From NCBI GenBank assembly GCA_945897315.1, contig CAMDFF010000004.1:1018-65017 (forward strand): a stretch of 64,000 nt of DNA, written 5' to 3'. How positions within the stretch are numbered: the stretch's first letter is position 1; every line of letters starts with the position of its first letter. Source of the DNA: a candidate division TM6 bacterium UASB124 (GTDB lineage Bacteria > Babelota > Babeliae > Babelales > RVW-14). The notes beneath the pieces were generated by a model that saw only the letters and a list, made by a program, of their open reading frames with translations, did not search any database and was not told where the DNA came from. This document shows, in pieces, positions 21,059 through 55,881 of this stretch. Position numbers and translations under genes: made by a program.

Positions 21059-22651
21059 TTACAGACTGCCTGCACCACCAGCTGCTGCTACAACGGGGTG
21101 GGCTTGCGCTCTACGAGGTACACGCTCATAGAAGAGCATGGTGGCATCAGCTTGTCCTGGAATAGGCATAAAGCAACCGGTTGTCACGTCTTCGCGTACC
21201 GGGAAGCTTTCTGGGGTATTAAAAAGGTGTGCATCATTGCAATAAATCCAGGTGCCTGTATTGGTAAATGTTCTAGCTGTTGGATCGTATTCAGTCTCTT
21301 GCCTTAATGTTGTCCAATGACCGCTATGCATGGTTTCACCACCATGAAAAAGAATCGCGGTAAGCATAAAGCGCGTGCCGTTAATTGTTAAAAACTTTTC
21401 TATGGCAAGGGGTGTTTTAATTTTCCCCTCGCGTTGTTCTAGAATTTGACCTGGTAGTGGTCCCATGAGATCATTTCTCACTGCACGCTTTACGTTCACC
21501 ACTAAAACTTTTTGAGGGGTTATGGTGGCTTGAATTTCTTCGCCACTATCCAGACGTTCTGCTGTTTCGTAATCTTTCATTAATTGAGTGACTGAGGTGG
21601 CGTGGGCTCCTGCAGGAAGAGTGCCAGGTATTGGGACGTTGACTATAAATTGGTCCTCTGAGGGCAAAATGTCATACTGTCTGAGTGCATTGAGTCGTGT
21701 TGTAGCAATGCTTGTTTTGCTTATAGTTTGATCATACGCAAACATGCTATTCATTAAACCTGTATAAAATTCATCAGCGGTTTGATTGCGTCTTCGTACG
21801 CCAGGTGCTGGAGCTGGAGCTCCTGTGCATAATTCATATGCTCTGTCAGCAAGTGCAGTATACGTTGGATCATTCGGTATAACGTAATGTGTGGTTGGCA
21901 GAAAATAGGTATCCCTAAAGGCTAGGAATACATTTAATAAAGCTGCATCAGTTGGGAAAGTCCGAGCAATTTCGGCTGGTAGTCGCATGATGTTTGCACG
22001 GTTGAAATTGTGTACATAGGTGCATAGCGTTGGGCTTGCAAACATGCCTTGCAGTGTTGCATTCATGAAACACATAATATCTGGATTGTTAATGCCTCTG
22101 ATCATACCGCTAGGGGCTACGCTTCCAGGAGTCGGCAGTAGTGGGTGATATGGTTTAACAAGAGCAGGTTGTTGTGGCTTCATAGATACTAATTCTCTTG
22201 TGACTGGAGCACTTGTGAAGAGTGTAGTAAGTTTTGCAGCAAGAATGCCGGCTAGAGCGGTAGCTTTTTGAAAGATTGTGCTTCTTGGAATTGGTATCGG
22301 TGCTTGAGGGTGTGTAGTGCATGGATTGGTAGTTGTTTGTTCAGTTGTAGGGCTTACACTGAGTGTTTGTGGTACCGCAGGAGGTATCGCTGGTGTTATG
22401 GTAGGTGCTGGGATGGGAGGCGTAGTCGATGTGTTAATCAGTGGGCGAGTCTTTTTAAGAGCAGCTTGCTGGATTTCTCCTGAAGGTTCATCGTCGTCAC
22501 TGCTTAAAACTATTGCCTGAGTTTCTATTTCAGCATGTTTTTTTGTTGCTGAGCGTGTTATGCGTTTTGCTGGATGACGATGACTCGTACAGGACAGATT
22601 ACTGTCTGCAAAAAACAGTGTAAATAGCGTAAAAATAGTATAAAAAATCAT
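21059..22651 (-). CDS. Secreted ubiquitin-specific protease-like cysteine peptidase (USP/UCH, C19-like)
   Basis: Has a Cys-box-like GINNPDIMCFMNATLQGMF and a His-box-like LTAILFHGGETMHSGHWTTL...WIYCNDAHL. The N-terminus is hydrophobic (MIFYTIFTLFTLFFA) and is followed by a Pro/Thr-rich linker. Confidence 0.75.
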   Translation of the reverse strand: MIFYTIFTLFTLFFADSNLSCTSHRHPAKRITRSATKKHAEIETQAIVLSSDDDEPSGEIQQAALKKTRPLINTSTTPPIPAPTITPAIPPAVPQTLSVSPTTEQTTTNPCTTHPQAPIPIPRSTIFQKATALAGILAAKLTTLFTSAPVTRELVSMKPQQPALVKPYHPLLPTPGSVAPSGMIRGINNPDIMCFMNATLQGMFASPTLCTYVHNFNRANIMRLPAEIARTFPTDAALLNVFLAFRDTYFLPTTHYVIPNDPTYTALADRAYELCTGAPAPAPGVRRRNQTADEFYTGLMNSMFAYDQTISKTSIATTRLNALRQYDILPSEDQFIVNVPIPGTLPAGAHATSVTQLMKDYETAERLDSGEEIQATITPQKVLVVNVKRAVRNDLMGPLPGQILEQREGKIKTPLAIEKFLTINGTRFMLTAILFHGGETMHSGHWTTLRQETEYDPTARTFTNTGTWIYCNDAHLFNTPESFPVREDVTTGCFMPIPGQADATMLFYERVPRRAQAHPVVAAAGGAGSL

Positions 22652-42343: not shown

Positions 42344-45300
42344 ATGGGTGTTTCTATGAAAACATTTTTTATTTTAGTTGTTCTGATCGCGGGGCTTACA
42401 GCATCGAGCGTTGGCTTATTGGCCAGTGCGCGGCGTGCTCCAGTGGCTGCCGTTTCTGCTGCTGACCTTGAGGTACAGTTGCGTTCTTGTCGGAGTGCAG
42501 CAGATGCTCGCGCAATTTTAGTTGATGCTAACAAAATTGTGAGTGCAGGAGGAGCGGATTATGCAGTGGCAAAAAAGGTTTCTCAGTCTGCGAGCGCGGC
42601 AATTGTACGGTTTGAAGCAGAAGAGCGCGAAGCAAAGATAAGGGCTGAGCAGCAAGTTGCTCGAGCACGAGAAGAAGTTGTTCGAGCACGAGAAGAAGCA
42701 GCGGCAGCGCAAGAAGCACGGCGTGCGGGTGAAGCCAAGATTGCGGCGGCGGGAGGTACGGTGGAAGCGCTTAGTGCTGAAGTTGCTCGATTAACGGCTG
42801 ATCTTCAAGCAGGAGCGGTTGTTAATATGAGATTGCAAGCGCATTGTGAGCAGCTGCGTGCTGATGCGGTTCGTGAAGCGGCAGCAAAAGCTACAGAGCT
42901 TGCTGCGCAGGTAGCCAAAAATTCTGGTTTGGCAGAACAAATTCGTGCTGTGCAAAATGAATTACAGCAAGTGCGGTTTCTCATGGCTCAGAAAGAACAA
43001 CAAGGTGCAGCGCTCCTTCAGAAAAACCAACAGCAGCGCGATGTGAATGCGCGGCTTCAACGAGAAATAGCTCAGGTTAGTGCTCAAAATGAAGCAGCAG
43101 AGGCTCGCGTCACAGCGGCAGAAGCAGAAAAAAATCAAGAATGTGCTCGCGTGCAAGCGGAAAAAGATGAAGCAGTGCAGGAAGCAGCGAGACTAGGTTC
43201 AGTTGCTGAAGCGCGGATTGCAGCTATACAGCAAGCCGTAGCTGCAGTGACTGTGAATTTACAAGCGTCACAGGCAGCCCTTGCTGAGCAGGCTGCGAGC
43301 AAAGCTGTGATTGAACGTGAAAATGCTAGAGTCAAAGCCGATCTTACTCGTGTGCGTGGAGCTCAAGATGAAATTGCTGCAGAAGCAGAGGCTACTGTTA
43401 TAGCTGCACAAAGAGAAAAAGATGAAGAATGTGCTCGAGCACGAGAAGAAGCAGCGTTATCACAAGCAGCACTGCGTGCGGGTGAAGCCAGGCTTGCGGA
43501 GGCAGGAGGTACCGTGGAAGCGCTTCGTGCTGAGGTTTCCGCGCAGGTAGCACAAAATTCTCGCTTGGCTGCTGAGATTCAGGCTGTGCAAAATAAATTA
43601 CAGCAAGTGGAGCGTCAAATGGCTCAGAAAGAACAGCAACGTGCAGTGCTGCTTCAGGAAAACCAACAGCAGTGCGATGTGAATGCGCGGCTTCAACAAG
43701 AAATAGGTCAGGTTCAGGCCGAAAATGCAGCAGCGATTGCTCGTGCTCAAGCAGAAAAAGAGAGAGCGCAGCAGGAGGCAGAGGCTCGTGTTGCAGCGGC
43801 AGAAGAAGAACAAGTTCGAGAATGTGCTGCTTTACGAACTGAAAAAGAAAGTGTGACAAGGCAAGCACAGGCTGATGTTGCTGTTGCTCAGGCACGGGCG
43901 CTCCAATTGGAAGAAGGGAACGCTACAGGTCGCCGGAAATTTGAGGACGAGAATCGTATATTGCAGCAGCAAGTTGATGCTCACAATACAGAATTGCAAG
44001 CACTGAGAGGTCAGCTTGCTGCTGAACAGGCACAACAAGCCCAAATTGCTGCAGAAGCAGAGGCTAGTGTTATAGCTGCACAAAGAGAAAAAGATGAAGA
44101 AGTTGTTCGAGCACGAGAAGAAGCAGCGGCAGCGCAAGAAGCACTGCGTGCGGGTGACGCCAGGGTTGCGGCGGGGGTAGATGCAGCGGGAGCGCTTAGT
44201 GCTGAAGTTACTCGATTAACGGCTGATCTTCAAGCAGGAGCGGCTGTGAATGTGAGATTGCAAAAATCTTGTGAGTCGCAGCGTGCTGATGCGGTTCGTG
44301 AAGCGGCAGTAAAAGCTACAGAGCTTGCTGCGCAGGTAGCCCAAAATTCTGGTTTGGCTACTCAGATTCAGGATGTGCAAAATGAATTACAGCAGATGCA
44401 GCGTTACATGGCTGAGAAAGAGAGAGAGCAGCAGGAAGCAGAGCGTCAGGCTGCCACAATCAAAACGCAACATGAGCAAGCAGTTGCGGTAGTGACTGCC
44501 GAGTTGGAAGCATCACAGGCGGCGCTTGCTCAGCAGGCTGCGAGCAAAGCTGTGATTGAAGGTGAAATTGCTAGCGTCAACGCAGAGCTTGATCGTGTGC
44601 GTGCAGCTCAAGATGAAATTACTGTACAAACAGAGGCTCGTGTGCGTGCAGTAGAAGCAGAAAAATCTCAAGAATCTGCTCGCCTTCAACGAGAAATAGC
44701 TCAGGTTCGTGCCGAAAATGCAGCAGCGATTGTTGCTGCTCAAGCGGAAAAAGAGCTAGCAGCGCAGGAAGCAGCGAGTCACATTGCAGAGGTGCAAGCA
44801 CGATGTGAAGAAGCAGTGAGCGCGGTTAGAGCCGAGCTAGAAGCATCACGGGCGGCGCTTGCTGCGCAGCGTCAGAAAAATGGCGAAATTTCTGCACAAT
44901 TAGAAAGTCGAGAGCAGGATATTCAGCGTGCTATGTTCACAATTCAATCACTTGTACATTCACCTCATACAGAAGATCCTGAAAGAACTTGGGATTTTGG
45001 TCAGCTGCAGAAACAAAATACAGAGTTAAAGGCAGAAAATACAGTGCTAAAGCATGCGAAATGTAAAGTGTGTGAGCAGGCAGCTCAGGAAACAGACGGA
45101 GAATGGGAGCGCTTGATGGCAACTAGTCTTGATGATGTAGCGGGCGGTCCCGCGTGTAGTTCTGCTGCTGCGGGGGGAATGTCTTCAATAACTGAAACTG
45201 TGCTTGCGATAGAGCGAGAGAAGGACGATTTAGTACTTCGTTGTGAGGCTTTACGTGAAGATAACCAACGATTAAGACAAGCGTATGAAGAAATGCAAGT

Positions 45301-45493
45301 GCGCAATAGTGCCTTAGAGCAACAATATCTACGTTTGGCAGAAGAGTGTTATAAAATTTCTCAGGAATTAACGATTCTAGATCGTGTGGCAGATGAGGCG
45401 GTAAAACCAGAAGCATTGTTAGCAAAGAAAAGCACATTTGGAGCGTTGCTCGCTAGAGTGCGAGCATTAGGACAAGCGTTTCCTAAGCCGTAA
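42344..45493 (+). CDS. Secreted giant coiled-coil protein with kb-scale internal repeats
   Basis: The signal is MKTFFILVVLIAGLTASSVGLLASA. The 1049-aa protein is dominated by A, E, Q and R heptad-like sequence. Modules such as REEAAAAQEA(L/R)RAGEA and TADLQAGA.VN.RLQ..CE..RADAVREAA.KATELAAQVA.NSGLA recur two or three times. Confidence 0.7.
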   Translation: MGVSMKTFFILVVLIAGLTASSVGLLASARRAPVAAVSAADLEVQLRSCRSAADARAILVDANKIVSAGGADYAVAKKVSQSASAAIVRFEAEEREAKIRAEQQVARAREEVVRAREEAAAAQEARRAGEAKIAAAGGTVEALSAEVARLTADLQAGAVVNMRLQAHCEQLRADAVREAAAKATELAAQVAKNSGLAEQIRAVQNELQQVRFLMAQKEQQGAALLQKNQQQRDVNARLQREIAQVSAQNEAAEARVTAAEAEKNQECARVQAEKDEAVQEAARLGSVAEARIAAIQQAVAAVTVNLQASQAALAEQAASKAVIERENARVKADLTRVRGAQDEIAAEAEATVIAAQREKDEECARAREEAALSQAALRAGEARLAEAGGTVEALRAEVSAQVAQNSRLAAEIQAVQNKLQQVERQMAQKEQQRAVLLQENQQQCDVNARLQQEIGQVQAENAAAIARAQAEKERAQQEAEARVAAAEEEQVRECAALRTEKESVTRQAQADVAVAQARALQLEEGNATGRRKFEDENRILQQQVDAHNTELQALRGQLAAEQAQQAQIAAEAEASVIAAQREKDEEVVRAREEAAAAQEALRAGDARVAAGVDAAGALSAEVTRLTADLQAGAAVNVRLQKSCESQRADAVREAAVKATELAAQVAQNSGLATQIQDVQNELQQMQRYMAEKEREQQEAERQAATIKTQHEQAVAVVTAELEASQAALAQQAASKAVIEGEIASVNAELDRVRAAQDEITVQTEARVRAVEAEKSQESARLQREIAQVRAENAAAIVAAQAEKELAAQEAASHIAEVQARCEEAVSAVRAELEASRAALAAQRQKNGEISAQLESREQDIQRAMFTIQSLVHSPHTEDPERTWDFGQLQKQNTELKAENTVLKHAKCKVCEQAAQETDGEWERLMATSLDDVAGGPACSSAAAGGMSSITETVLAIEREKDDLVLRCEALREDNQRLRQAYEEMQVRNSALEQQYLRLAEECYKISQELTILDRVADEAVKPEALLAKKSTFGALLARVRALGQAFPKP

Positions 45494-45527: not shown

Positions 45528-47126
45528 ATGAAGACAAAAAATATAGTTTTTATCTTATTCGCGTGTAGCGCAGCAACACTTGCTGCAGGGAGCGCAACAG
45601 GCCGATCATTTTTCCAGCCACGGTTGCTATGGGCTGAGCAGATGCTGACATTGCATAATGGCACGGAATACGATTGTATGCCTCCAGCGAGCAGCGGCTT
45701 TAGCTTTAATGCTGCTGCGGGCTTTCAAGCGTCAACGCATGACAGCAAATTTGCTAGCTACTTCTTGCCGAATGGCAAAAATGATTTAGTTGTGAAAGGG
45801 GCTAATGCTCCGGGTCCGCGTGATATCTCTGCGATGTGGTTGCAAATTGTTGGTGACAACACTGTTGCTCAGCCTGCAGCGCTTTTTGTGCCAAGTCCAG
45901 ATAAAATTTTTGATTATGAGCGGGCTGCAATGCAATGGATCAATGAATACTCCAGCGTTATTAGCTTGCGACCACGCTTTGAATCATCCGGGGTGCTGAC
46001 ACACTTATCGTACTGTGCAAAGATCAATCGCATGCCGTGCCAGCTGACAGTTGGAGTGCCTGTGCTGCACGTGCGTAATAATATGCAGCTTTGTGAAACT
46101 GATGTGCAAAATGGTTTTACCAAGAGAAGTGATGTTAGTTCATTGCTAATTGAGCCCACAAGCATAGAGCTATTACAAGAAGTTCAACCTCAGTATTCAC
46201 TGTCTGCTATCGAAGCTTTTAATAATCCTAACAAGCGCTTTGCCAAGATCAGCCAGGGAGCTCTTGAAAAACGTGGCCTGGGCGATGTGAGCCTTGACCT
46301 TGCTGTTCGTCCTGTCTCGTCTGTAACCATAGGGCTGCGTGGTGAGTTGCCAACGGCATCTAAGGGGACCGCAGAATATCTTTTTGAGCCGCTGCTGGGT
46401 AGCAATGGTCACGGGACACTGGGAGCCTATGCACAGATGCGAGAAGCGTTGTGGTCTTGTGATCAAGGCACACTGTTTTTGAAAGCACAGCTGCAGTACC
46501 AAGCACAGTTTGCTGGCAACCAGTTGCGTACGTTTGACCTTACTGCTGCTGGCCAGTGGAGCAGATATCTTTTATTAATTGATGCAGCCAATAACCCAAA
46601 AAATGCTGACTCTGGTGTGAATTTTTTAACGCAATCGGCACACGTGAGCGCTCGGCAAGAGGGACTCGGTGGTCTTAGCCTAGAGCTGGAACACAAAGGC
46701 TTTTTGGCATCAGCCGGATACTCATTGTTTGCGCGAGAAAAAGAACGTGTCTCTGTGCGTACGCAGTTGCCGCAAAATCTTTTTATTGTGGGGCAGCTGG
46801 CATCAAATAACAGCGGAAAAAGAAATATTTCTGCTGGTGAAAAAAACAGCTCGATTGGTAATCATATTCCTGTTGGGCACAGTGCGTTTGTTGATCCCTT
46901 AGCCCAAGCTAACGCAGGCCTTGCATTGACCACAGCCGACCTTGATGTGCAGTCTGCAAGCATGCCAAAATATTTTTCGCATACCGTTCACGCGTCGCTT
47001 GGCTACGCTGGCCGAGTGCGCCAGCAAGAGGTGCATTGTAATCTGGGTGGCCGCTATGAAATGTTGCGCTATGGGCATAACTACAATGTGTACAGTCTCT
47101 TTGCGGGGTTAGAAATTAAGATTTAG
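45528..47126 (+). CDS. Putative outer-membrane (beta-barrel) protein
   Basis: Has the signal MKTKNIVFILFACSAATLAAGSA and beta-strand-like alternation throughout. The C-terminal strand is NVYSLFAGLEIKI. I recognise no family. Confidence 0.35.
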   Translation: MKTKNIVFILFACSAATLAAGSATGRSFFQPRLLWAEQMLTLHNGTEYDCMPPASSGFSFNAAAGFQASTHDSKFASYFLPNGKNDLVVKGANAPGPRDISAMWLQIVGDNTVAQPAALFVPSPDKIFDYERAAMQWINEYSSVISLRPRFESSGVLTHLSYCAKINRMPCQLTVGVPVLHVRNNMQLCETDVQNGFTKRSDVSSLLIEPTSIELLQEVQPQYSLSAIEAFNNPNKRFAKISQGALEKRGLGDVSLDLAVRPVSSVTIGLRGELPTASKGTAEYLFEPLLGSNGHGTLGAYAQMREALWSCDQGTLFLKAQLQYQAQFAGNQLRTFDLTAAGQWSRYLLLIDAANNPKNADSGVNFLTQSAHVSARQEGLGGLSLELEHKGFLASAGYSLFAREKERVSVRTQLPQNLFIVGQLASNNSGKRNISAGEKNSSIGNHIPVGHSAFVDPLAQANAGLALTTADLDVQSASMPKYFSHTVHASLGYAGRVRQQEVHCNLGGRYEMLRYGHNYNVYSLFAGLEIKI

Positions 47127-47321: not shown

Positions 47322-47354
47322 AAAAAAAATGGGGACGGCGCGAGCGCCATCCCC
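47322..47354 (-). terminator. Rho-independent terminator of fibre gene A (GGGGACGGCG hairpin family)
   Basis: The minus strand reads ggggatggcgc-tc-gcgccgtcccc followed by T8. Confidence 0.75.
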
Positions 47355-47383: not shown

Positions 47384-49741
47384 TTACTTATTATTCATCG
47401 CTTTGATTTGCTCGCGTAGTGCAGCAAGCTCTTGCTCAAGTGAGCCAACGCGTTTGTCTTGACGTTGATACTCATTCAAGAGTAAAGCAGGGAGCAAGTG
47501 GTAGCGAACGGTTTCAGCTTGATGCTCTTTGTTAACAATAACTAGATTTGGCATGATCTCTTGTACTTCTTCTGCAATCAAACCGTATTGCGTAACGTGT
47601 GAGTCATCGCCTTTATAAACAAAGCTTACGGGACGTAGCTTGAGCAGATCGGCAGATATGTTGCCAAGGTCTTTAATGTCGTCTTTGTAACGAGCAGATG
47701 ATGCAAGGGTGCCAAGGTTGCCGTTAGAGTCAATTAATACTGCTGAAGCAGTTTCAACATCGGATGTTGTTTTGTTGTAGATACCGGCAATATAACATGC
47801 TGCTTGTGAAGTACCAATACGCGTTGTGCTGCTTTCACTGCTGGTTGCTGCGTTGCTATTGATGTAAATATTGCTCGACCCTGAGGTAAGGGTACCACCG
47901 GCGCCATATCCAAGGCAAATGTTGCTGTTGCCTGATCTGAGCGATGGCCCTGCTTCTGCGCCAAGAATGACGTTGTTATCGCCAGAGGTAATTGCATCGC
48001 CAGCATTGAGTCCAACCAGTGTGTTATCATTTGCGCTGCCATTAAAATTGGCGCCTGCGCCTTTACCAAAGACAACGTTACTGTTGACATCAGCAGCGAG
48101 AACTCTTCCTGTAACTGAAACATCAGCAGAAAAATTTCCGCCACCAGGTACGAGTATGCGGCCTAAGGTAGAAGTACCAGTAACGTTGAGATCGCCATTG
48201 ATATATGCATCATCATTCATGGTTGTTACGCCAGCGATGTAGGCTGTACCTGCAATAGACAAGTTACCATCGAGTTCACCATAGGCATGGGTTGCAATAT
48301 CGGCATAAACATTGAGGTCAGATTCCATCGTTGTTTCACCAGAGATGAGCACAACGCCTGATGAGTGCAAGCTGCCAACATTGGTTGTGCCTGTGATGGT
48401 AGTATCGCCTGTAATGTTTGTGTCACCGTTAATATTTGCGTGGCCAGCAATTTGTGCGCCACCAGCTGTGACGGTGATGCCTGCTCCAAAGGTACTGCTG
48501 CCGGTAACGCAGAGGTTGCCACCAATATTTGTATCATTTATTACGGTAAGGCCTGTTCCTGCGCCAGAGAGTGTTGCGTCGCCAGAAATATTCATGACGC
48601 CTGATGAGTGCAAGCTGCCAACATTGGTTGTGCCTGTAATATTTGTATCGCCGGTAATATTTGCATGGCCAGCAATGTGTGCACCACCGGTAGTAATTGT
48701 GATGCCGTTACCAAATGTGGCAGATTGTGAAACGTCTAAGTTTCCTGTGATAGAAGCATTGTCATCGATGGTTGTGTACCCAGCGATGTAGGCTGTGCCA
48801 GCAATGGATAAGTTGCCATTGAGTTCGCCGTGAGCATAGGTAGCAATGTTGCCATACACATCAAGGTCGTTGTCCATGGTTGTTACGCCAGAAATAAGCA
48901 CAACGCCTGATGAGTGCAAGCTGCCAACATGGACGGTACCTGTGGTGCTAAAGTCACCAGTAACTGATGAATCACCAGTGATATGTGCCCCGCCGGTAGT
49001 CACCGTTAAGCCACCATCACCACCGATTAAAGCAGATCCTGTTGTGGTGAAATTTCCATTAAGTTGCTGGTTGCCATTGATTGTTGTATTGCCATTGATG
49101 GTTGTTTCGCCCGTGAGCGTAGGAGAGCCGAGTAGGTTTCCTGTAACGTTTCCGATGAGATCTGCTGTGATGATGTGTGCTGCAAAGTCGCCATTAAGGT
49201 CGCGTCTAACAATGAGCCCAGGAGAATTTGTTGGAACACCACTGATCGCAGTGAGTGCTGAAGCTGTAAGATTGCCAACACCAACGGTATTTGCGGCAAT
49301 TTTATCGCCAGTGACAGATCCTGCGGCGATTTTTACGTTAGTTACTGCTCCGTCTGCAAGGCGTATTGTATCGATTGCTTGAGCAATAACATTGTAACGA
49401 CGAATAGCATCAACGCCGATAAGTGTGTTGACGAGTGGAAGTAAGGTACGTGTTGTTTCGTCTACAGCATCAATAAATTCGCTTGCAGGGATATCACGAT
49501 GCTTATTATAAATGCGTTCGAGTACGTTTCTAAATGCTTCAGGCAAGGCGATGTTGTGGTTGTGAATAAGCTGTGCAACTTCAATGAGCGTTACAGCGTC
49601 AGCATCGCTGAGTCTATGCGTGTCTTCTGCCCGTTGTTCTCTAGCTTCAGGCGTAAGCTGTAGGGCTGTAGGTAGAACTTGATGCGCCGAAAGCGAGAGC
49701 ATCAACGTAAGTTTTAATAAGTGGTTTATACTCGTAGACAT
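47384..49741 (-). CDS. Secreted tail-fibre-like beta-helix repeat protein with C-terminal S74-type intramolecular chaperone (autoproteolytic) domain - fibre A
   Basis: The signal-like N-terminus is LLKLTLMLSLSAHQ. It has a fibre-type IADGAVTNVKIAAGSVTGDKIA..VRRDLNGDFAAHIITADLIGNVTGN, then G/T/N-rich repeats of about 100 aa. The C-terminal region reads SSARYKDDIKDLG..LRPVSFVYK..QYGLIAEEVQEIMPNLV..VRYHLLPALLLNE, followed by a terminal coiled coil. Confidence 0.8.
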   Translation of the reverse strand: MSTSINHLLKLTLMLSLSAHQVLPTALQLTPEAREQRAEDTHRLSDADAVTLIEVAQLIHNHNIALPEAFRNVLERIYNKHRDIPASEFIDAVDETTRTLLPLVNTLIGVDAIRRYNVIAQAIDTIRLADGAVTNVKIAAGSVTGDKIAANTVGVGNLTASALTAISGVPTNSPGLIVRRDLNGDFAAHIITADLIGNVTGNLLGSPTLTGETTINGNTTINGNQQLNGNFTTTGSALIGGDGGLTVTTGGAHITGDSSVTGDFSTTGTVHVGSLHSSGVVLISGVTTMDNDLDVYGNIATYAHGELNGNLSIAGTAYIAGYTTIDDNASITGNLDVSQSATFGNGITITTGGAHIAGHANITGDTNITGTTNVGSLHSSGVMNISGDATLSGAGTGLTVINDTNIGGNLCVTGSSTFGAGITVTAGGAQIAGHANINGDTNITGDTTITGTTNVGSLHSSGVVLISGETTMESDLNVYADIATHAYGELDGNLSIAGTAYIAGVTTMNDDAYINGDLNVTGTSTLGRILVPGGGNFSADVSVTGRVLAADVNSNVVFGKGAGANFNGSANDNTLVGLNAGDAITSGDNNVILGAEAGPSLRSGNSNICLGYGAGGTLTSGSSNIYINSNAATSSESSTTRIGTSQAACYIAGIYNKTTSDVETASAVLIDSNGNLGTLASSARYKDDIKDLGNISADLLKLRPVSFVYKGDDSHVTQYGLIAEEVQEIMPNLVIVNKEHQAETVRYHLLPALLLNEYQRQDKRVGSLEQELAALREQIKAMNNK

Positions 49742-49833: not shown

Positions 49834-49863
49834 AAAAAAAAACCGGGGATGGTAAGTCCCCGG
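49834..49863 (-). terminator. Rho-independent terminator of fibre gene B
   Basis: The minus strand reads ccgggga-cttacca-tccccgg followed by T9. Confidence 0.75.
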
Positions 49864-49878
49864 TAAGTAATCTATGAA

Positions 49879-51801
49879 TTAAGCGGTTGGCTCTGGTGCA
49901 ATACCCAAAGCAGCTTCGATTTTATCTAGTCGGCTTAGAATCGAATCAAATGTTGTTGCTTGTTGTTCGACCATACAAAGACGCTTCTCTTGGGCAAGAA
50001 CTTCATTGATGAGCAACGGTGTAAACAGCTCATAGCGAATTGCATCTGGTCTGTTTTCTTTGTCAAAAACAACAGTGTGAGGTAGAAGATCAGCTACTTC
50101 TTCAGCAACAAGGCCAAATTGTAAACGTTTTTGAGGATCTTGTTTGTACGTAAATGTAACAGGGCGTAACTGTTTAAATGCATCAGCTTGGCTGCCTACA
50201 TCTTTAATATCGTCTTTATAGCGACGGGATGATGCAAAACCACTGACGGTGCCTAATTCGCCTCCAGGAGTAATTGCGACGTTTGCGAAATCTATACCTA
50301 AAAAATGTCCAAAACCACCAATCATGTTTCCTGCAACTCCTGAAAAATTAACGCTACCAGGGACAGAAAGATTTGCGATATGCAAAGTGCCATCAACAGT
50401 TAGATCATTGCGAAATGTAGAATTACCGTAAATATCCGATGATCCAACGGGTAGATATAAATTACCTGTTGGTAGGGTTAGGTTGCCAGCAATGTAGCAT
50501 GCTGTGTGGGTACCCGTGGTGCCTAGGCGAGTTGTTTGTGATTCTTGGTGAGCGCCAACGTTGCCAATATAAATAGTATTGTTTTCGCTACCTGCCAGTG
50601 ACGATCCTGACTGGCACCCGAGGGCAATATTGCTTGCACCGGTGCGAAGATTTTGTAGCGCTCGTGACCCAACAGCTGTATTGTCATAACCCGTTGTTCT
50701 AATGAGCGCTTGGAATCCTACAGCGGCATTGTTGTTGCCAGTAAGATTGGCAGCAAGAGAGCCTTGGCCAATGGCGGTATTTTGTTGTCCTGCGGTGTTG
50801 CCACTGAGTGCAGTTGTGCCAATAGCTGTATTGTTTATCCCCGTGGTATTGCTGAACATCGATTTGTAACCAATAGCGGTATTATTGCTGCCTGAACTAT
50901 TGGAGTAAAGATTTTTAAACCCGATAGCAACGTTGCTGACCCCACTGTTGTTGTTGTACATTGCTGCGTAGCCAAGAGCCGTATTCTCATGGCCAGTATT
51001 GTTGTTGTACATTGTTGTGTAGCCGACAGCAGTATTATTGTTACCTGTCGAGGTGCTGGCCATTGCTTGTGAGCCAAAAGCGGTATTGCTGTCTCCAGCA
51101 TTGTTAGCAAGAGCACTGTGTCCCATCGCAGTATTGTCGTTGCCTGAGGTATTGTTTAAGAGTGCTTGGTATCCGGTAGCGCTGTTGCGATCGCCAGATG
51201 TATTGCTACTGAGTGCTTGTACGCCAGAAGCCGTATTTTCGTCTCCAATGGTATTGCTGTTGAGTGCCTGATAGCCAAGCCCCGTATTTGCTTTGCCAAT
51301 AGTAGTAGATTGCCCTGTGCTAGCGCCAATAAAGGTATTGTTTGCCGCGCTTGGCAGGAATGATTCAGCCGTATATTCATTGCCAAAAGCAGCATTGTTA
51401 TTATTGTCAACAAACTCATTTACCGTTAAGGAATACTTGAATTTTTGTTGGGCTGGTACATGGTACAAACTCAAAGCTTGCAGGGATTTGACAAGCGCAC
51501 TTTTTTGCTCGCTGTCTGGCAATGGTGCAATGATACCGTGCGCATCTTTAACGCCTGCTACTAAATCTTCTGCCCTGATTGTTCGGTGTTCAATAAGCGC
51601 TTCAAATATGTGTTTAAGAGGTGGTGGTAACTCCATCTGTTTGGCATCACAAATGTGTGCCACTGCCATGAGTGTTGCAATATCGGCATCGTCTAAAACA
51701 GCCGATGATTCATCACGTGTTTGCATTGCATCTGGTGTGGCACTTATGGGGACGCATGCAAAAAGCATGGTGACAAATAAATAATATAGTGTTGGAAACA
51801 T
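49879..51801 (-). CDS. Secreted tail-fibre-like repeat protein with C-terminal S74-type intramolecular chaperone domain - fibre B
   Basis: The signal-like N-terminus is LFVTMLFACVPISA. It has 17-aa NTAxGxxALxxNTxGxx repeats (51-bp DNA period). The C-terminal region reads SSRRYKDDIKDVGSQADAFKQLRPVTFTYKQDPQKRLQFGLVAEEVADLLPHTVV. AGGAG lies upstream. Confidence 0.8.
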   Translation of the reverse strand: MFPTLYYLFVTMLFACVPISATPDAMQTRDESSAVLDDADIATLMAVAHICDAKQMELPPPLKHIFEALIEHRTIRAEDLVAGVKDAHGIIAPLPDSEQKSALVKSLQALSLYHVPAQQKFKYSLTVNEFVDNNNNAAFGNEYTAESFLPSAANNTFIGASTGQSTTIGKANTGLGYQALNSNTIGDENTASGVQALSSNTSGDRNSATGYQALLNNTSGNDNTAMGHSALANNAGDSNTAFGSQAMASTSTGNNNTAVGYTTMYNNNTGHENTALGYAAMYNNNSGVSNVAIGFKNLYSNSSGSNNTAIGYKSMFSNTTGINNTAIGTTALSGNTAGQQNTAIGQGSLAANLTGNNNAAVGFQALIRTTGYDNTAVGSRALQNLRTGASNIALGCQSGSSLAGSENNTIYIGNVGAHQESQTTRLGTTGTHTACYIAGNLTLPTGNLYLPVGSSDIYGNSTFRNDLTVDGTLHIANLSVPGSVNFSGVAGNMIGGFGHFLGIDFANVAITPGGELGTVSGFASSRRYKDDIKDVGSQADAFKQLRPVTFTYKQDPQKRLQFGLVAEEVADLLPHTVVFDKENRPDAIRYELFTPLLINEVLAQEKRLCMVEQQATTFDSILSRLDKIEAALGIAPEPTA

Positions 51802-51848
51802 AACGCTCCTGGTTTTAGAAATTTAAACATGGTTTAAGCAGTGGCTCA

Positions 51849-51878
51849 ATTATAGAAAGGGGGGCTTGAGCAACACAA
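51849..51878 (-). promoter_or_regulatory. Putative sigma70-type promoter of fibre gene B (TTGTGT-N18-TATAAT)
   Basis: The minus strand reads ttgtgt-tgctcaagcccccctttc-tataat. The same architecture is conserved upstream of fibre gene C. Confidence 0.45.
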
Positions 51879-52066
51879 GATTTCATCAAAAGTAAAAAAT
51901 ATGACTTTCTTTGTGTACTTGGGAATGGTTATTTGCAGGGCGTATTGCATGAATATGGCTATGATATCGATCTGGTAAGTGAATGCCGCTAGCGGGCTGA
52001 GAATGGGTATTGTTGAAGAAGAGTGGGCACCCGTTGGTACCCCCTCGGTAAAAAAGCATATAAAAG

Positions 52067-55000
52067 TTATTTGCTTGCCAGCGCTTTAATATGTGCACGC
52101 ATATCAGCAAGCTCTTGTTGAAATGCATTCATACGACTGCTCATTGCTTCAAGAGTATCTGCTTTTGTTTCAACCATGCAAAGACGCTTCTCTTGGGCAA
52201 GTACTTCATTGATAAGCAAGGGTGTAAACAGCTCATAGCGAATTGCATCTGGTCTTTTTTCTTTGTCAAAAACAACGGTGTGAGGTAGAAGATCAGCTAC
52301 TTCTTCAGCAACAAGGCCAAATTGTAAACGTTTTTGAGGATCTTGTTTGTACGTAAATGTAACAGGGCGTAACTGTTTAAATGCGTCAGCTTGGCTGCCT
52401 ACATCTTTAATATCGTCTTTATAACGACGGGATGATGGTAGGAAGCCACTGACGGTGCCTAATTCGCCTCCAGGAGTAATTGCGACGTTTGCGAAATCTA
52501 TCCCTAAAACATGTCCAAAGTCACCAATTGTGTTCCCTGCAACTCCTGAAAAATTAACGCTACCAGGGACAGAAAGATTTGCGATATTCAAAGTTCCATC
52601 AACAGTTAGATCATTGCGAAATGTAGAATTACCGTAAATATCCGATGATCCAACGGGTAGATATAAATTACCTGTTGGTAGGGTGAGGTTGCCAGCAATG
52701 TAGCATGCTGTGTGGGTACCCGTGGTGCCTAGGCGAGTTGTCTTATTTTCGCCATGCGCACCTAAATTTCCAATGTAAATATTATTTGATTCGCTCTTTG
52801 CCAGTGATGTGCCGGCGTTGTAACCAAGTGCAATATTGTTTGACCCGCTGCCCAGGTTTTGTAGCGACTGTGAACCATGAGCGGTATTATATTCTCCCGT
52901 ATTGTGGTAAAGCGCGTTGTGTCCAACAGCAGTGTTTGCTCCGCCGGTATTATTATAAAGTGCGCTATCACCAACGGCAACGTTATTGGATCCGCTATTA
53001 TTTGAATATAATGCCTGGTAGCCGAGAGCGGTATTGGGTTTTCCTGAGGTATTATTGTATAGAGCTTGCGATCCTACGCCGGTATTATTGTCTGCAGTAT
53101 TGTTGTAGAGCGCTTCATATCCGACGCCAGTATTGTCTGATGCTGATGGATTGATGAAGAGGGCGTTAGTTCCAATAGCAACGTTTTGAGAAGCGCTGCC
53201 ACTTTCACCCTCTGCATTACTGTTATAAAGAGCATAGTTGCCAATTGCAATGTTGTCAGATCCTGCTGTGTTGGAGTAAAGGGCTTGATATCCCAGAGCA
53301 TTATTGTTGTAGCCGGTAGTGTTACTCATGAGCGCTTGGCTGCCAACAGCAGTGTTGTCATCTGATTCATTGACGAGGAGTGCATAAAATCCAAGAGCGG
53401 TATTGTTGCTGCCAGAGGCATTATCACGTAATGCTTGGTTGCCAAGCGCGGTGTTGTTTTCTCCTGTGGTATGATGCCCTGCCCAGAAGCCAATAGCAGT
53501 ATTAGCGGTACCGGTTTGGTTGGCTGAAAGAGCTTGGTACCCTACAGCAACGCCGCTACCAGCTGTTGTATTGCTGTAAAGGGTGCTTGAGCCAATCGCA
53601 ATGTTTTGTGATCCTGCTGGTCCACCTTCTGTGCGATTCTTTGATTTAGGGCTCATGAAGTAAGAGCTATTTGAATAGAGTGCACTATTTCCGATGGCAA
53701 TGTTGTCAGAGCCAGTGTCATTATTAAATAGAGCTTTGTAGCCAAGGGCATTATTTGCTGATCCAGTGGTATTTCCTTCTAGCGCTTGGTACCCAACAGC
53801 AACGTTAGGGCCGCCAGAGGTGTTATTATAGAGGGCATGGCTACCAATCGCCGTATTTTGCGAAATGGCATTGTTATAGAGCGCGTTGTCTCCAATAGCG
53901 ACGTTAAAATTACCAGGGTTTGTTCCGCCTGCAAGGGCATTGTCACCGATAGCTGTGTTGCTGGTGCCCATTGTTGCGCTGTTCATACTTGCAGTTCCAA
54001 CAGCAGTATTGTCTGAACAGTTACCTTCTTCATCTGCCCCGAGATTTTGAAGAGAATAATAACCGACGGCAACGTTGCCAGTAGCATCTGCATTTGTAAG
54101 TGCTTTATGGCCAAGGGCAATGTTTTGCTTGCCCGATCTGTTTATATTAAGGGTCTCTATGCCAATCGCAATGTTGTGTTCACCATCTGTTACATTGAGC
54201 AAGGCATTGTCGCCGATCGCAATATTTTCGCTGGTGGTGGCGCCTAATCCAATCGCGTTGTTTCCGATAGCAATATTTTTGCTGCCAAAGGTGTTTGCGT
54301 TAAGAGCTTGGTAGCCAACAGCAACGTTATGTTCACCGCTTGTGTTTTTTTGAAGAGCTCGTGCACCTGTTGCTGTATTGTATGGAGCTGTATTTGTTTC
54401 AAGCGCGCGGTAGCCAACAGCAGTATTTTCTGGCGAGCGGCGGTTGGTGCCAAGGGCATTGAATCCAACAGCAGTATTGTGCGTACCGGTTGAGTTGTAG
54501 CTGAGAGCAGCGGCACCAACGGCTGTGTTTTCATGGCTGGTAGTTCTGATGAGCGCTTGAAATCCGATTGCTGCGTTGTTACTGCCGGTAAGGTTAGCTG
54601 CAAGAGAACCTTGACCGATAGCAGTATTTTGTTTGCCTGAGGTGTTGCCACTTAAAGCAGTTGTGCCAATTGCAGTATTGTTGATACCGGAGGTGTTGCT
54701 GAACATCGATTTGTAACCAATAGCGGTATTATTACTGCCTGAACTATTGGAGTAAAGATTTTTATACCCGATAGCAACGTTGCTGGCCCCGCTGTCATTG
54801 CTGTACAGTGCAGCATAGCCAACGGCAGTGTTTTCATGGCCAGTATTGTTGTTGCACATCGTTGTGTAGCCGACAGCAGTATTATTGTTACCTGCCGAGG
54901 TACTGGCCATTGCTTGTGAGCCAAAAGCGGTATTGCTGTCTCCCGCATTGTTAGCAAGAGCACTGTGTCCCATGGCGGTATTGTCATTGCCAGAGATATT

Positions 55001-55687
55001 TGCAAACAGTGCTTGATACCCCACAGCACTGTTGCGATCACCAGATGTATTGCTGCAGAGGGCTTGTACGCCAAGAGCACTATTTTCATCGCCAATAGTA
55101 TTGTAAAAGCTGGCTTCGCTACCAAGAGCAACGTTGCGACCCCCAGTAGCGTTGTTATTTAGCGTGTGATAACCGACGGCAGTATTATCGTTTCCGATAG
55201 TGTCGTATTTACCAGCGCTAACGCCAATAAAAGTATTGTGTACAGCGCTTGGTAGTAGTGCTGCAGCGGTCGTCTCGTCACCAAAAACAGTATTGCCATT
55301 ATCGTCAACAAACGCTGTAAGAATAGGATCTCCTCCTCTGCTATCGACTAAATTTTTCGGTTTGCAGAGTTTGATCTGTTCTTCGAGAGATGTGATAAGT
55401 ATGTTTTTTTCTTGGCATTCAGGCAGCAGTGTAACGATTTTTTGTGCGTCCTTTAATCCATTTTCAAGGTCTTTGATTGCAATTGTTCGATGTTCAAAAA
55501 TATCGGCTAGAATGTTTTTTAGTCTGTCTGGTAAGTCAATGTTCTGAGTATCACAAATGTTTGCTACTGTCATAAGTGGTGCAATATCGATTGCGTCAGC
55601 AAGTAGCTCTTCCTGGTTTTTTACTTGTGCGTTGTGCGTTGATGCGATAAGCAGTGTAAACAATAAGTAAAATTGTATACGAGTCAT
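52067..55687 (-). CDS. Secreted tail-fibre-like repeat protein (about 50 x 17-aa units) with C-terminal S74-type intramolecular chaperone domain - fibre C
   Basis: The signal-like N-terminus is FYLLFTLLIASTHNA, followed by a very long array of NTAxGxxALxxNTxGxx units. Its C-terminal 190 or so aa are almost identical to fibre B, including SSRRYKDDIKDVGSQADAFKQLRPVTFTYK. Confidence 0.8.
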   Translation of the reverse strand: MTRIQFYLLFTLLIASTHNAQVKNQEELLADAIDIAPLMTVANICDTQNIDLPDRLKNILADIFEHRTIAIKDLENGLKDAQKIVTLLPECQEKNILITSLEEQIKLCKPKNLVDSRGGDPILTAFVDDNGNTVFGDETTAAALLPSAVHNTFIGVSAGKYDTIGNDNTAVGYHTLNNNATGGRNVALGSEASFYNTIGDENSALGVQALCSNTSGDRNSAVGYQALFANISGNDNTAMGHSALANNAGDSNTAFGSQAMASTSAGNNNTAVGYTTMCNNNTGHENTAVGYAALYSNDSGASNVAIGYKNLYSNSSGSNNTAIGYKSMFSNTSGINNTAIGTTALSGNTSGKQNTAIGQGSLAANLTGSNNAAIGFQALIRTTSHENTAVGAAALSYNSTGTHNTAVGFNALGTNRRSPENTAVGYRALETNTAPYNTATGARALQKNTSGEHNVAVGYQALNANTFGSKNIAIGNNAIGLGATTSENIAIGDNALLNVTDGEHNIAIGIETLNINRSGKQNIALGHKALTNADATGNVAVGYYSLQNLGADEEGNCSDNTAVGTASMNSATMGTSNTAIGDNALAGGTNPGNFNVAIGDNALYNNAISQNTAIGSHALYNNTSGGPNVAVGYQALEGNTTGSANNALGYKALFNNDTGSDNIAIGNSALYSNSSYFMSPKSKNRTEGGPAGSQNIAIGSSTLYSNTTAGSGVAVGYQALSANQTGTANTAIGFWAGHHTTGENNTALGNQALRDNASGSNNTALGFYALLVNESDDNTAVGSQALMSNTTGYNNNALGYQALYSNTAGSDNIAIGNYALYNSNAEGESGSASQNVAIGTNALFINPSASDNTGVGYEALYNNTADNNTGVGSQALYNNTSGKPNTALGYQALYSNNSGSNNVAVGDSALYNNTGGANTAVGHNALYHNTGEYNTAHGSQSLQNLGSGSNNIALGYNAGTSLAKSESNNIYIGNLGAHGENKTTRLGTTGTHTACYIAGNLTLPTGNLYLPVGSSDIYGNSTFRNDLTVDGTLNIANLSVPGSVNFSGVAGNTIGDFGHVLGIDFANVAITPGGELGTVSGFLPSSRRYKDDIKDVGSQADAFKQLRPVTFTYKQDPQKRLQFGLVAEEVADLLPHTVVFDKEKRPDAIRYELFTPLLINEVLAQEKRLCMVETKADTLEAMSSRMNAFQQELADMRAHIKALASK

Positions 55688-55737
55688 GTTATTCCCAATT
55701 TATTAGAAATGTATGGTTGATTTCATTCAGTGGGGTG

Positions 55738-55767
55738 ATTATAGAAAGTGGAGTTTGGGCAATACAA
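55738..55767 (-). promoter_or_regulatory. Putative sigma70-type promoter of fibre gene C (TTGTAT-N18-TATAAT)
   Basis: The minus strand reads ttgtat-tgcccaaactccactttc-tataat. It is homologous to the region upstream of fibre gene B. Confidence 0.45.
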
Positions 55768-55881
55768 GATTTTAGAAAACGAGCAAGAAATAATAATTTT
55801 ACGGCTATTTGACAACATCGATCTGTAGTGCTCATCTCATCAGGGCGGATGAATTCACGTGTGGAATGGAAGTGTTGGTAC

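Follow-up and report, generated by a model that had tools for sequence, protein, structure and literature searches.

In the K1F endosialidase and the fibres of phage T5, a chaperone domain nucleates folding of the trimer from the C terminus and then cleaves at a conserved serine. Several tandem or paralogous families of bacterial adhesins, among them Vomp of Bartonella quintana, UspA1, UspA2 and UspA2H of Moraxella, Hia and Hsf of Haemophilus and babA and babB of Helicobacter, have been shaped by gene conversion and by changes in repeat number. Mosaic surface-protein paralogues that arise through gene conversion are textbook biology, and mosaicism itself is not new; the S74 family of ‘tail fiber domain-containing proteins’ is likewise large and already annotated in many phyla. 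Here we analyse a stretch of 64,000 nucleotides (nt), called the window throughout, from contig CAMDFF010000004.1 of a candidate division TM6 bacterium. The TM6 bacteria belong to the Dependentiae, which live inside protists as obligate parasites; searches of the literature for fibres or adhesins of this group, and for S74 proteins outside phages, brought up no relevant work. The window encodes four paralogous candidate fibre proteins, A to D. Two of the genes, B and C, form a patchwork of nearly identical and strongly diverged segments, and we give a probability of roughly 0.72 to an account in which they are old duplicates within a cellular fibre family, altered later by gene conversions and by in-frame changes in repeat number.

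All four genes are open reading frames (ORFs) on the minus strand, with lengths given in amino acids (aa):
47384–49741, minus strand: gene A, a paralogue of 785 aa; Pfam S74 match, leader and N-terminal domain (N-domain) as in B, C and D, different stalk repeats
49879–51801, minus strand: gene B, 640 aa; leader, helical N-domain, about 16 repeats of 17 aa, cap, tip and Peptidase_S74
52067–55687, minus strand: gene C, 1206 aa; laid out as B, with about 49 repeats
61662–63017, minus strand: gene D, a paralogue of 451 aa; about seven repeats, S74 chaperone and a tail of the A/C type

In each protein an N-terminal hydrophobic, signal-peptide-like leader precedes a helical domain of about 100 aa, and Peptidase_S74 (PF13884), the ‘chaperone of endosialidase’ domain of Pfam, lies at the C terminus. 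Against a gathering score of 22, this domain scores 53.1 bits in A, 46.5 in B (aa 524–577), 45.6 in C (aa 1085–1138) and 51.1 in D. The 17-aa repeat, NTAxGxxALxxNTxGxx, was counted at the protein level (about 16 copies in B, 49 in C and 7 in D) because the units are too diverged for Tandem Repeats Finder, which reported no array in B or C.

Similarity between B and C is far above chance (blastn E = 0) and is distributed over the following segments:
49984–50544, minus strand: putative main conversion tract, B copy (aa 420–606); end of the cap, B/C-specific tip and chaperone core
52187–52750, minus strand: the same tract, C copy (aa 980–1167); one extra codon, GFLPSS against GF-ASS in B
50545–50670, minus strand: two cap repeats of B (aa 378–419), the positional homologue of C 52751–52876
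50671–51255, minus strand: proximal repeat block, B copy (aa 183–377), with a sub-tract at 50851–51123
54518–55102, minus strand: proximal repeat block, C copy (aa 196–390), with a sub-tract at 54698–54970
52877–54517, minus strand: C-specific repeats (aa 391–937); 1641 nt or 547 codons by global alignment
49882–49983, minus strand: tail of B (aa 607–640); distal end of the C-terminal helix of the chaperone (aa 590–632 in the AlphaFold2 model)
52070–52186, minus strand: tail of C (aa 1168–1206); A/D type, ..EL A..R..I.A...K

The main tract extends over 561 nt at 95.5% identity, with 25 differences and one 3-nt indel (blastn and codon alignment), and its longest exact run is 107 nt. An earlier note, made from the sequence alone, had placed a near-identical block at 49968–50535 and 52170–52742, and the ends measured here lie within about 16 nt of these. 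Its label of ‘tip + chaperone’ for the block agrees with the position of Peptidase_S74 at the C terminus of all four proteins. The second, less similar block that it described (about 50700–51290 against about 54545–55140) was recovered as the proximal repeat block, which is 585 nt long, 85.3% identical and free of gaps, and contains a 273-nt sub-tract at 92.7% identity. The remaining segments are far more diverged: the two cap repeats share about 70% of their nucleotides, with a synonymous divergence (dS) of about 1.0 that marks them as old, and the 180 N-terminal codons are 59–69% identical.

Silent sites separate these blocks sharply. Calculated per segment by the Nei–Gojobori method, dS between B and C is 1.23 in the N-domain, 1.14 in the pre-repeat region, 1.01 in the cap and 1.28 in the tail, compared with 0.11 in the tip and chaperone tract and 0.12 in B aa 227–266. 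The patchy structure that had been read from the sequence is thus borne out against uniform divergence, with a tract at 0.11 set among an N-domain, cap and tail at 1.0–1.3. We then counted silent differences among codons that encode the same amino acid in B and C and permuted them 20,000 times. Such differences number 9 of 167 in B aa 420–594, as against 37% elsewhere, a contrast that none of the permutations equalled (0/20,000; p < 5e-5); in B aa 227–317 they number 12 of 80, again against 37% elsewhere (4/20,000 permutations; p about 2e-4).

Stronger purifying selection on the tip and chaperone, with no recombination at all, would fit the low nonsynonymous divergence (dN) of the conserved blocks, which is 0.01–0.07. 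Yet the proximal repeat block as a whole combines a dN of 0.065 with a dS of 0.64, and its distal part a dN of 0.07 with a dS of 1.29; protein constraint therefore does not freeze synonymous sites in this family, and selection on the protein would not spare them in a tract whose dS is 0.11. The 85-codon chaperone core makes the same point, as its proportion of synonymous differences (pS) is 0.10 between B and C and 0.66–0.83, that is, saturated, in each of the pairs A–B, A–C, A–D, B–D and C–D. Contradicted in this way, selection alone is scarcely credible as an explanation.

The phylogenetic signal changes at the same boundaries. In B/C/D triplets, sites at which B agrees with C, C with D and B with D number 202, 9 and 5 in the tract, 23, 21 and 6 in the tail and 36, 12 and 13 in the cap (Fisher p = 4e-12 for tract against tail and 7e-10 for tract against cap). 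Sharply bounded tracts of low dS in an otherwise saturated pair, with a shift of phylogenetic signal at their edges, are what characterizes a paralogue pair altered by conversion, and they support gene conversion, or an equivalent non-reciprocal recombination, over an old duplication as the probable source of the patchwork. The earlier note had spoken of ‘ongoing recombination or gene conversion’. The block contrast in dS and the permutations uphold conversion, but a tract dS of about 0.11 is not fresh and does not bear out ‘ongoing’.

The probable history runs as follows. An old duplication would have produced B and C, whose N-domain, cap and tail are now saturated at synonymous sites. Later, sequence would have been transferred non-reciprocally between the tandem copies at least twice, over the 561 nt of the tip and chaperone core and over about 270 nt of the proximal repeats, and in-frame changes in repeat number would have lengthened C by about 29 repeats and shortened B by 4. 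Two fibres would result that are alike in their distal tip, with about 16 repeats in one stalk and about 49 in the other.

The low dS of the tip and chaperone, and the high dS elsewhere, could also result from a recent partial duplication, in which one gene is a young copy whose N-domain, cap and tail were later replaced from paralogues or foreign DNA; the tail of C is indeed of the A/D type. However, low and high dS alternate at least five times along the gene (N-domain high, aa 227–317 low, 327–419 high, 420–606 low, tail high), which would require several separate replacements, and the window contains no donor. Polarity is the main difference between the two models. It is simpler to assume an old pair that underwent two short conversions, and we regard a young copy as rather unlikely.

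For the stalks, an outgroup was available in the closest relative in the protein database, P0002 (753 aa), which is encoded in a four-gene tandem array of an ENA metagenome. Repeat-unit matching and a three-way alignment make P0002 collinear with C minus aa 454–950. P0002 also holds four repeats that are missing from B, at C aa ~178–194 and 387–436, the second of which comprises three repeats lost by B in this comparison. Relative to P0002, C has an additional 497 aa (about 29 repeats; aa 454–950, 52838–54328) and B lacks 67 aa (4 repeats). The simplest reading, with polarity deduced from this relative, suggests a gain of about 29 repeats in C and a loss of 4 in B, and the ‘1.8-kb insertion’ of the earlier note would therefore be composite. 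That extra repeats are present in C is not in doubt; their extent is 1641 nt (52877–54517) rather than about 1.8 kb, as the range first given (about 52745–54540) took in the two cap repeats that align to B at about 70%. Nor do the data bear out the proposal that fibre length is still varying: the C repeats are old and mutually diverged, with best self-matches of 70–80% over at most 130 nt and no recent internal duplication. No donor of the extra repeats was found within the window, and their G+C content at third codon positions is unremarkable. P0002 itself has an unusual C terminus, in which SSxRxK is replaced by FARRHEDDTED at aa ~625–640; Pfam gives no S74 match, the rest of the chaperone is recognizable, and the domain may no longer be self-cleaving.

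At their 3′ ends the two genes part again. The tails of B and C are strongly diverged (pS 0.61; proportion of nonsynonymous differences 0.38), with a weak alignment over the first ~20 codons (..SRL.. / ..SRM..). ‘Unrelated’, the word first used for them, is therefore too strong, although the end peptides were quoted exactly and the likeness of C to A and D holds. Sites at which the tail of C agrees with D outnumber those at which B does by 21 to 6 (p = 0.006), and a family of direct repeats, D14, joins the tails of A, C and D at the nucleotide level (47396–47442, 52079–52125 and 61674–61720). The B tail bears a weak resemblance to that of P0002 and only remote similarity to that of C, and a search downstream of B for a frameshifted remnant of an A/D-type tail found none. 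The main tract ends at ..RLCMVE, inside the terminal helix of the chaperone, so each gene retains its own tail type; since this helix spans aa 590–632, the swapped 3′ end is its distal part. If the chaperone is released as in the phage proteins, the swapped tail would be discarded along with it.

Near-identical tandem genes could also be an assembly artefact, either strain variants of one gene set in tandem or a chimeric join. The record name (k141_...) points to a short-read, MEGAHIT-style assembly. In the Logan assembly of run ERR3719148 the sequence stops within the neighbouring ankyrin gene, just short of C, and gene B is on record from NCBI and ENA only. Against an artefact, the copies differ at 25 of 561 sites and by an in-frame codon, both ORFs are intact, and the flanks, promoters, terminators, N-domains and tails all differ. 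The longest shared run of 107 nt is shorter than the k-mer length of 141 that the record name appears to denote, so that a de Bruijn graph need not have merged the copies. The C gene is identical in a second assembly, from ENA (L101); the retrieved stretch of L101 runs across C, stops within the first part of B and agrees throughout. Mis-assembly of B and C is unlikely, and we allow it only a small chance.

What the four proteins are was approached through domains and models. An alignment of 52 family members gives a common plan of repeats, two cap repeats, TIRIG..IAG, a short linker, SSxRxK and the chaperone. The chaperone domain opens with the motif SS[A/R]RYK (S-x4-K), at residue 681 in A, 524 in B, 1085 in C and 333 in D, and S524, R527 and K529 (B numbering) are nearly invariant across the alignment. 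From work on K1F endosialidase, we take S-x4-K to be the cleavage dyad; by analogy, the chaperones of A–D would nucleate trimer folding and then cleave themselves at this motif. In sequence comparison the chaperone region resembles the L-shaped tail fibre of phage T5 (8hqz; E = 5.5e-5). The AlphaFold2 model of B has a mean predicted local distance difference test score (pLDDT) of 73.6 and shows a helical N-domain at aa 38–113. Its repeats are highly regular (pLDDT about 90) and form a short strand every 17 aa, and the chaperone, modelled with confidence, closes with a long helix (aa 590–632). Comparison of the whole B model with 3GW6 was not significant (E about 1), Foldseek searches of the PDB with the full B model and with the N-domain model gave no significant match, a PDB sequence search with full-length C found no match, and an NCBIfam search of A–D yielded nothing useful. 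The proteins are probably exported fibres, for which an adhesin role is our inference.

The N-domain (B aa 25–135, window 51397–51729, with equivalents in A, C and D) is close to an orphan. Among 1.84 billion representative proteins, a profile search returned seven matches, which include B and D themselves and two short A-like fragments (P0360 and P0361); the rest are weak and share only ‘..ALPDSxxKxxLxxRL..’, a helical-hairpin motif present in many copies in unrelated proteins (P0362 and P0364). The stalk of gene A (48182–49012) contains direct repeats of 258 nt at 74% identity, 549 nt apart, with an 18-bp periodicity. It is unlike the stalks of B, C and D, and the family therefore joins one N-domain and one chaperone to unrelated stalks.

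S74 chaperones are classically phage domains, and the repeats and chaperones of this locus match PHROG families of tail fibres, tailspikes and virion structural proteins; for the C repeats, matches to ‘virion structural protein’ and ‘tail spike’ families reach E values down to 7.5e-177. The genes might accordingly encode tail fibres that belong to a prophage, a tailocin or a contractile injection system and undergo ordinary module shuffling. The surroundings speak against this. No structural genes of a phage or injection system were found among the tested ORFs of the window, so that A–D are not encoded among such genes there. All four proteins have a hydrophobic leader, each gene appears monocistronic, and IMG/VR contains no close relative, the best match being 36% identical. 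The window is instead part of the chromosome of a Candidatus Dependentiae (TM6/Babeliales) bacterium: its LepA shares 94% identity with a protein of a ‘Candidatus Dependentiae bacterium’, and the next named matches are all from Dependentiae, Babeliales or TM6. Two sister metagenome-assembled genomes (P0124 and P0125) have LepA proteins at 92–94% identity. Alongside LepA it encodes ArgS, SecD, an ATP-dependent ligase, HldE, LpxA/LpxI-type enzymes, a Mur ligase, FtsW and an ABC-F protein, as well as a MacB/HlyD/TolC-type pump and ankyrin, RING and UCH proteins. Given this context of housekeeping, lipopolysaccharide, peptidoglycan, transporter and eukaryote-like effector genes, the lack of phage genes among the tested ORFs and the lack of a close IMG/VR relative, A–D are cellular chromosomal genes and not prophage genes, and a role as parts of a prophage, tailocin or injection system is very unlikely.

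The wider family has more than 5,800 database matches across many phyla, some of which carry modules of the type IX secretion system or of pilin type in precomputed Pfam labels. This fits a family of cell-surface fibres with lineage-specific parts for export or anchoring. Among 80 distantly related metagenomic loci (31–50% identical), 19 have tandem arrays of 2–6 chaperone-bearing genes, and tandem arrays are typical of the family. A scan of genome contigs with B found no relative; a scan with the MacB-type permease found distant homologues only (at most 50% identity), none near fibre genes, and no syntenic locus; and a scan of metagenome contigs found distant family members only, with no closely related locus.

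Several points weigh against an old duplicate pair reshaped by conversion and repeat-number change, or against parts of that account. None of the 19 other metagenomic arrays has a stretch of 150 nt or longer that reaches 93% identity; over hundreds of nucleotides, real matches are at most 83% identical. This absence may come in part from assemblers breaking at repeats. Conversion may have run from B to C or from C to B. The polarity of the indels rests on one outgroup, compared as protein and about equidistant from B and C, and P0002 has a neighbour of 1285 aa, so that a long and short pair may be older than the history above suggests. The B/C-specific tip (aa 438–504) is modelled at a pLDDT below 50, and export, trimerization, cleavage and surface display are deduced from features and likenesses. 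Finally, the source is a short-read metagenome assembly, and the two assemblies that agree probably share reads. Even with these points, we favour old duplicates with later conversions within a cellular fibre family.

Upstream and downstream of the genes, short elements recur:
51839–51884, minus strand: promoter-like element of B; TTGTGT, 18 nt, TATAAT
55728–55773, minus strand: promoter-like element of C; TTGTAT, 18 nt, TATAAT
49842–49864, minus strand: terminator-like hairpin 3′ of B

The two 46-nt elements, putative promoters, are identical at 36 of 46 positions and end 37 (B) and 40 (C) nt before the ATG. The match that the earlier note had described as a shared promoter is real, though short. 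Weaker versions of the element precede A and D, and its conservation there argues for functional conservation and not for a swapped block. With its own promoter-like element before it and a terminator-like hairpin after it, each fibre gene looks like a separate transcription unit. Three copies of a palindromic, G+C-rich hairpin (GGGGAYGGC..GCCGTCCCC) are present in the window, where none is expected by chance: after gene A (47331–47354), after gene D (61607–61628) and after a nuclease-like gene upstream of D (63212–63233). The hairpin may serve these genes as a common terminator or may be a small repetitive element. Tail type and 3′ hairpin are thus both common to A and D.

The neighbouring genes include the following:
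57208–61344, minus strand: four-gene MacB-type tripartite pump between C and D, with an HlyD-like protein, a TolC-like outer-membrane efflux protein, an FtsX/MacB permease and an ABC ATPase
55953–57191, minus strand: ankyrin gene between C and the pump operon, with a leader and a Cys-rich, RING-like N terminus (CIICFEK..CPPCF..CLNCRR)
45528–47126, plus strand: 532-aa protein with a leader, adjoining the fibre cluster upstream; no Pfam or NCBIfam match
42344–45493, plus strand: coiled-coil protein of 1049 aa, rich in Ala, Glu and Gln; leader, long internal repeats, no Pfam match
21059–22651, minus strand: UCH-type deubiquitinase domain
16513–17415, minus strand: RING finger domain

The nearest genome match to the pump permease, at 50% identity (L001), has no fibre genes nearby. 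In the ankyrin gene, a 102-bp tandem repeat (56127–56486; 3.5 copies, 86% identity) encodes the ankyrin repeats. From a reading of its sequence, the 532-aa product may be an outer-membrane protein, and the coiled-coil gene lies where the G+C content of the window peaks (0.49 against about 0.42). The UCH-type and RING proteins resemble the ubiquitin system of eukaryotes, which fits an intracellular parasite that manipulates its host.

What modest value the locus has lies in its setting: four candidate surface fibres with a lineage-restricted N-domain, in a group of protist parasites. B and C offer a clean natural case of one tip on two stalk lengths, and the locus could guide experiments on host recognition in an uncultured phylum and inform how S74 domains control the choice of trimer partners. 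We also put forward, as a speculation that is on balance doubtful, that phage-type, self-cleaving trimeric fibres were co-opted by a protist parasite as exported host-attachment fibres with a short and a long stalk, their tip and chaperone repeatedly converted and their unconverted coiled-coil tails acting as sorting tags against mixed trimers.

Three described systems come close to A–D. Trimeric autotransporter adhesins, the YadA family, are one: some databases give relatives this label, and the repeats, which are short, regular and rich in Asn and Gly, would suit a beta-solenoid stalk. The C terminus of A–D, however, is S74 and not a membrane anchor, and no YadA anchor, head or stalk domain was found in the four proteins by Pfam at E ≤ 0.01.

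The phage S74 fibres, such as K1F endosialidase and T5 pb1, together with the bacterial ‘tail fiber domain-containing proteins’, share with A–D the C-terminal PF13884, the S-x4-K motif and the long terminal helix. Also in common are a repetitive stalk, seen in the PHROG matches, and modularity, with the chaperone module passed from one gene to another. Unlike the phage fibres, A–D are chromosomal and lack nearby phage genes, they carry a signal-peptide-like leader, and their self-cleavage is predicted only. Where a phage fibre would have its virion-attachment domain, they have the rare helical N-domain.

The converted adhesin families named at the outset belong to other protein classes; unlike them, B and C have a presumably removable chaperone at the C terminus in place of an autotransporter beta-barrel anchor. 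In those families, as in B and C, neighbouring paralogues carry near-identical cassettes beside diverged ones, and one binding end is mounted on stalks of unequal length. Direct repeats could drive deletions and hybrids in both: here, the 561-nt and 585-nt direct repeats lie 2.2 and 3.8 kb apart, and deletions between them could create hybrid fibre genes.

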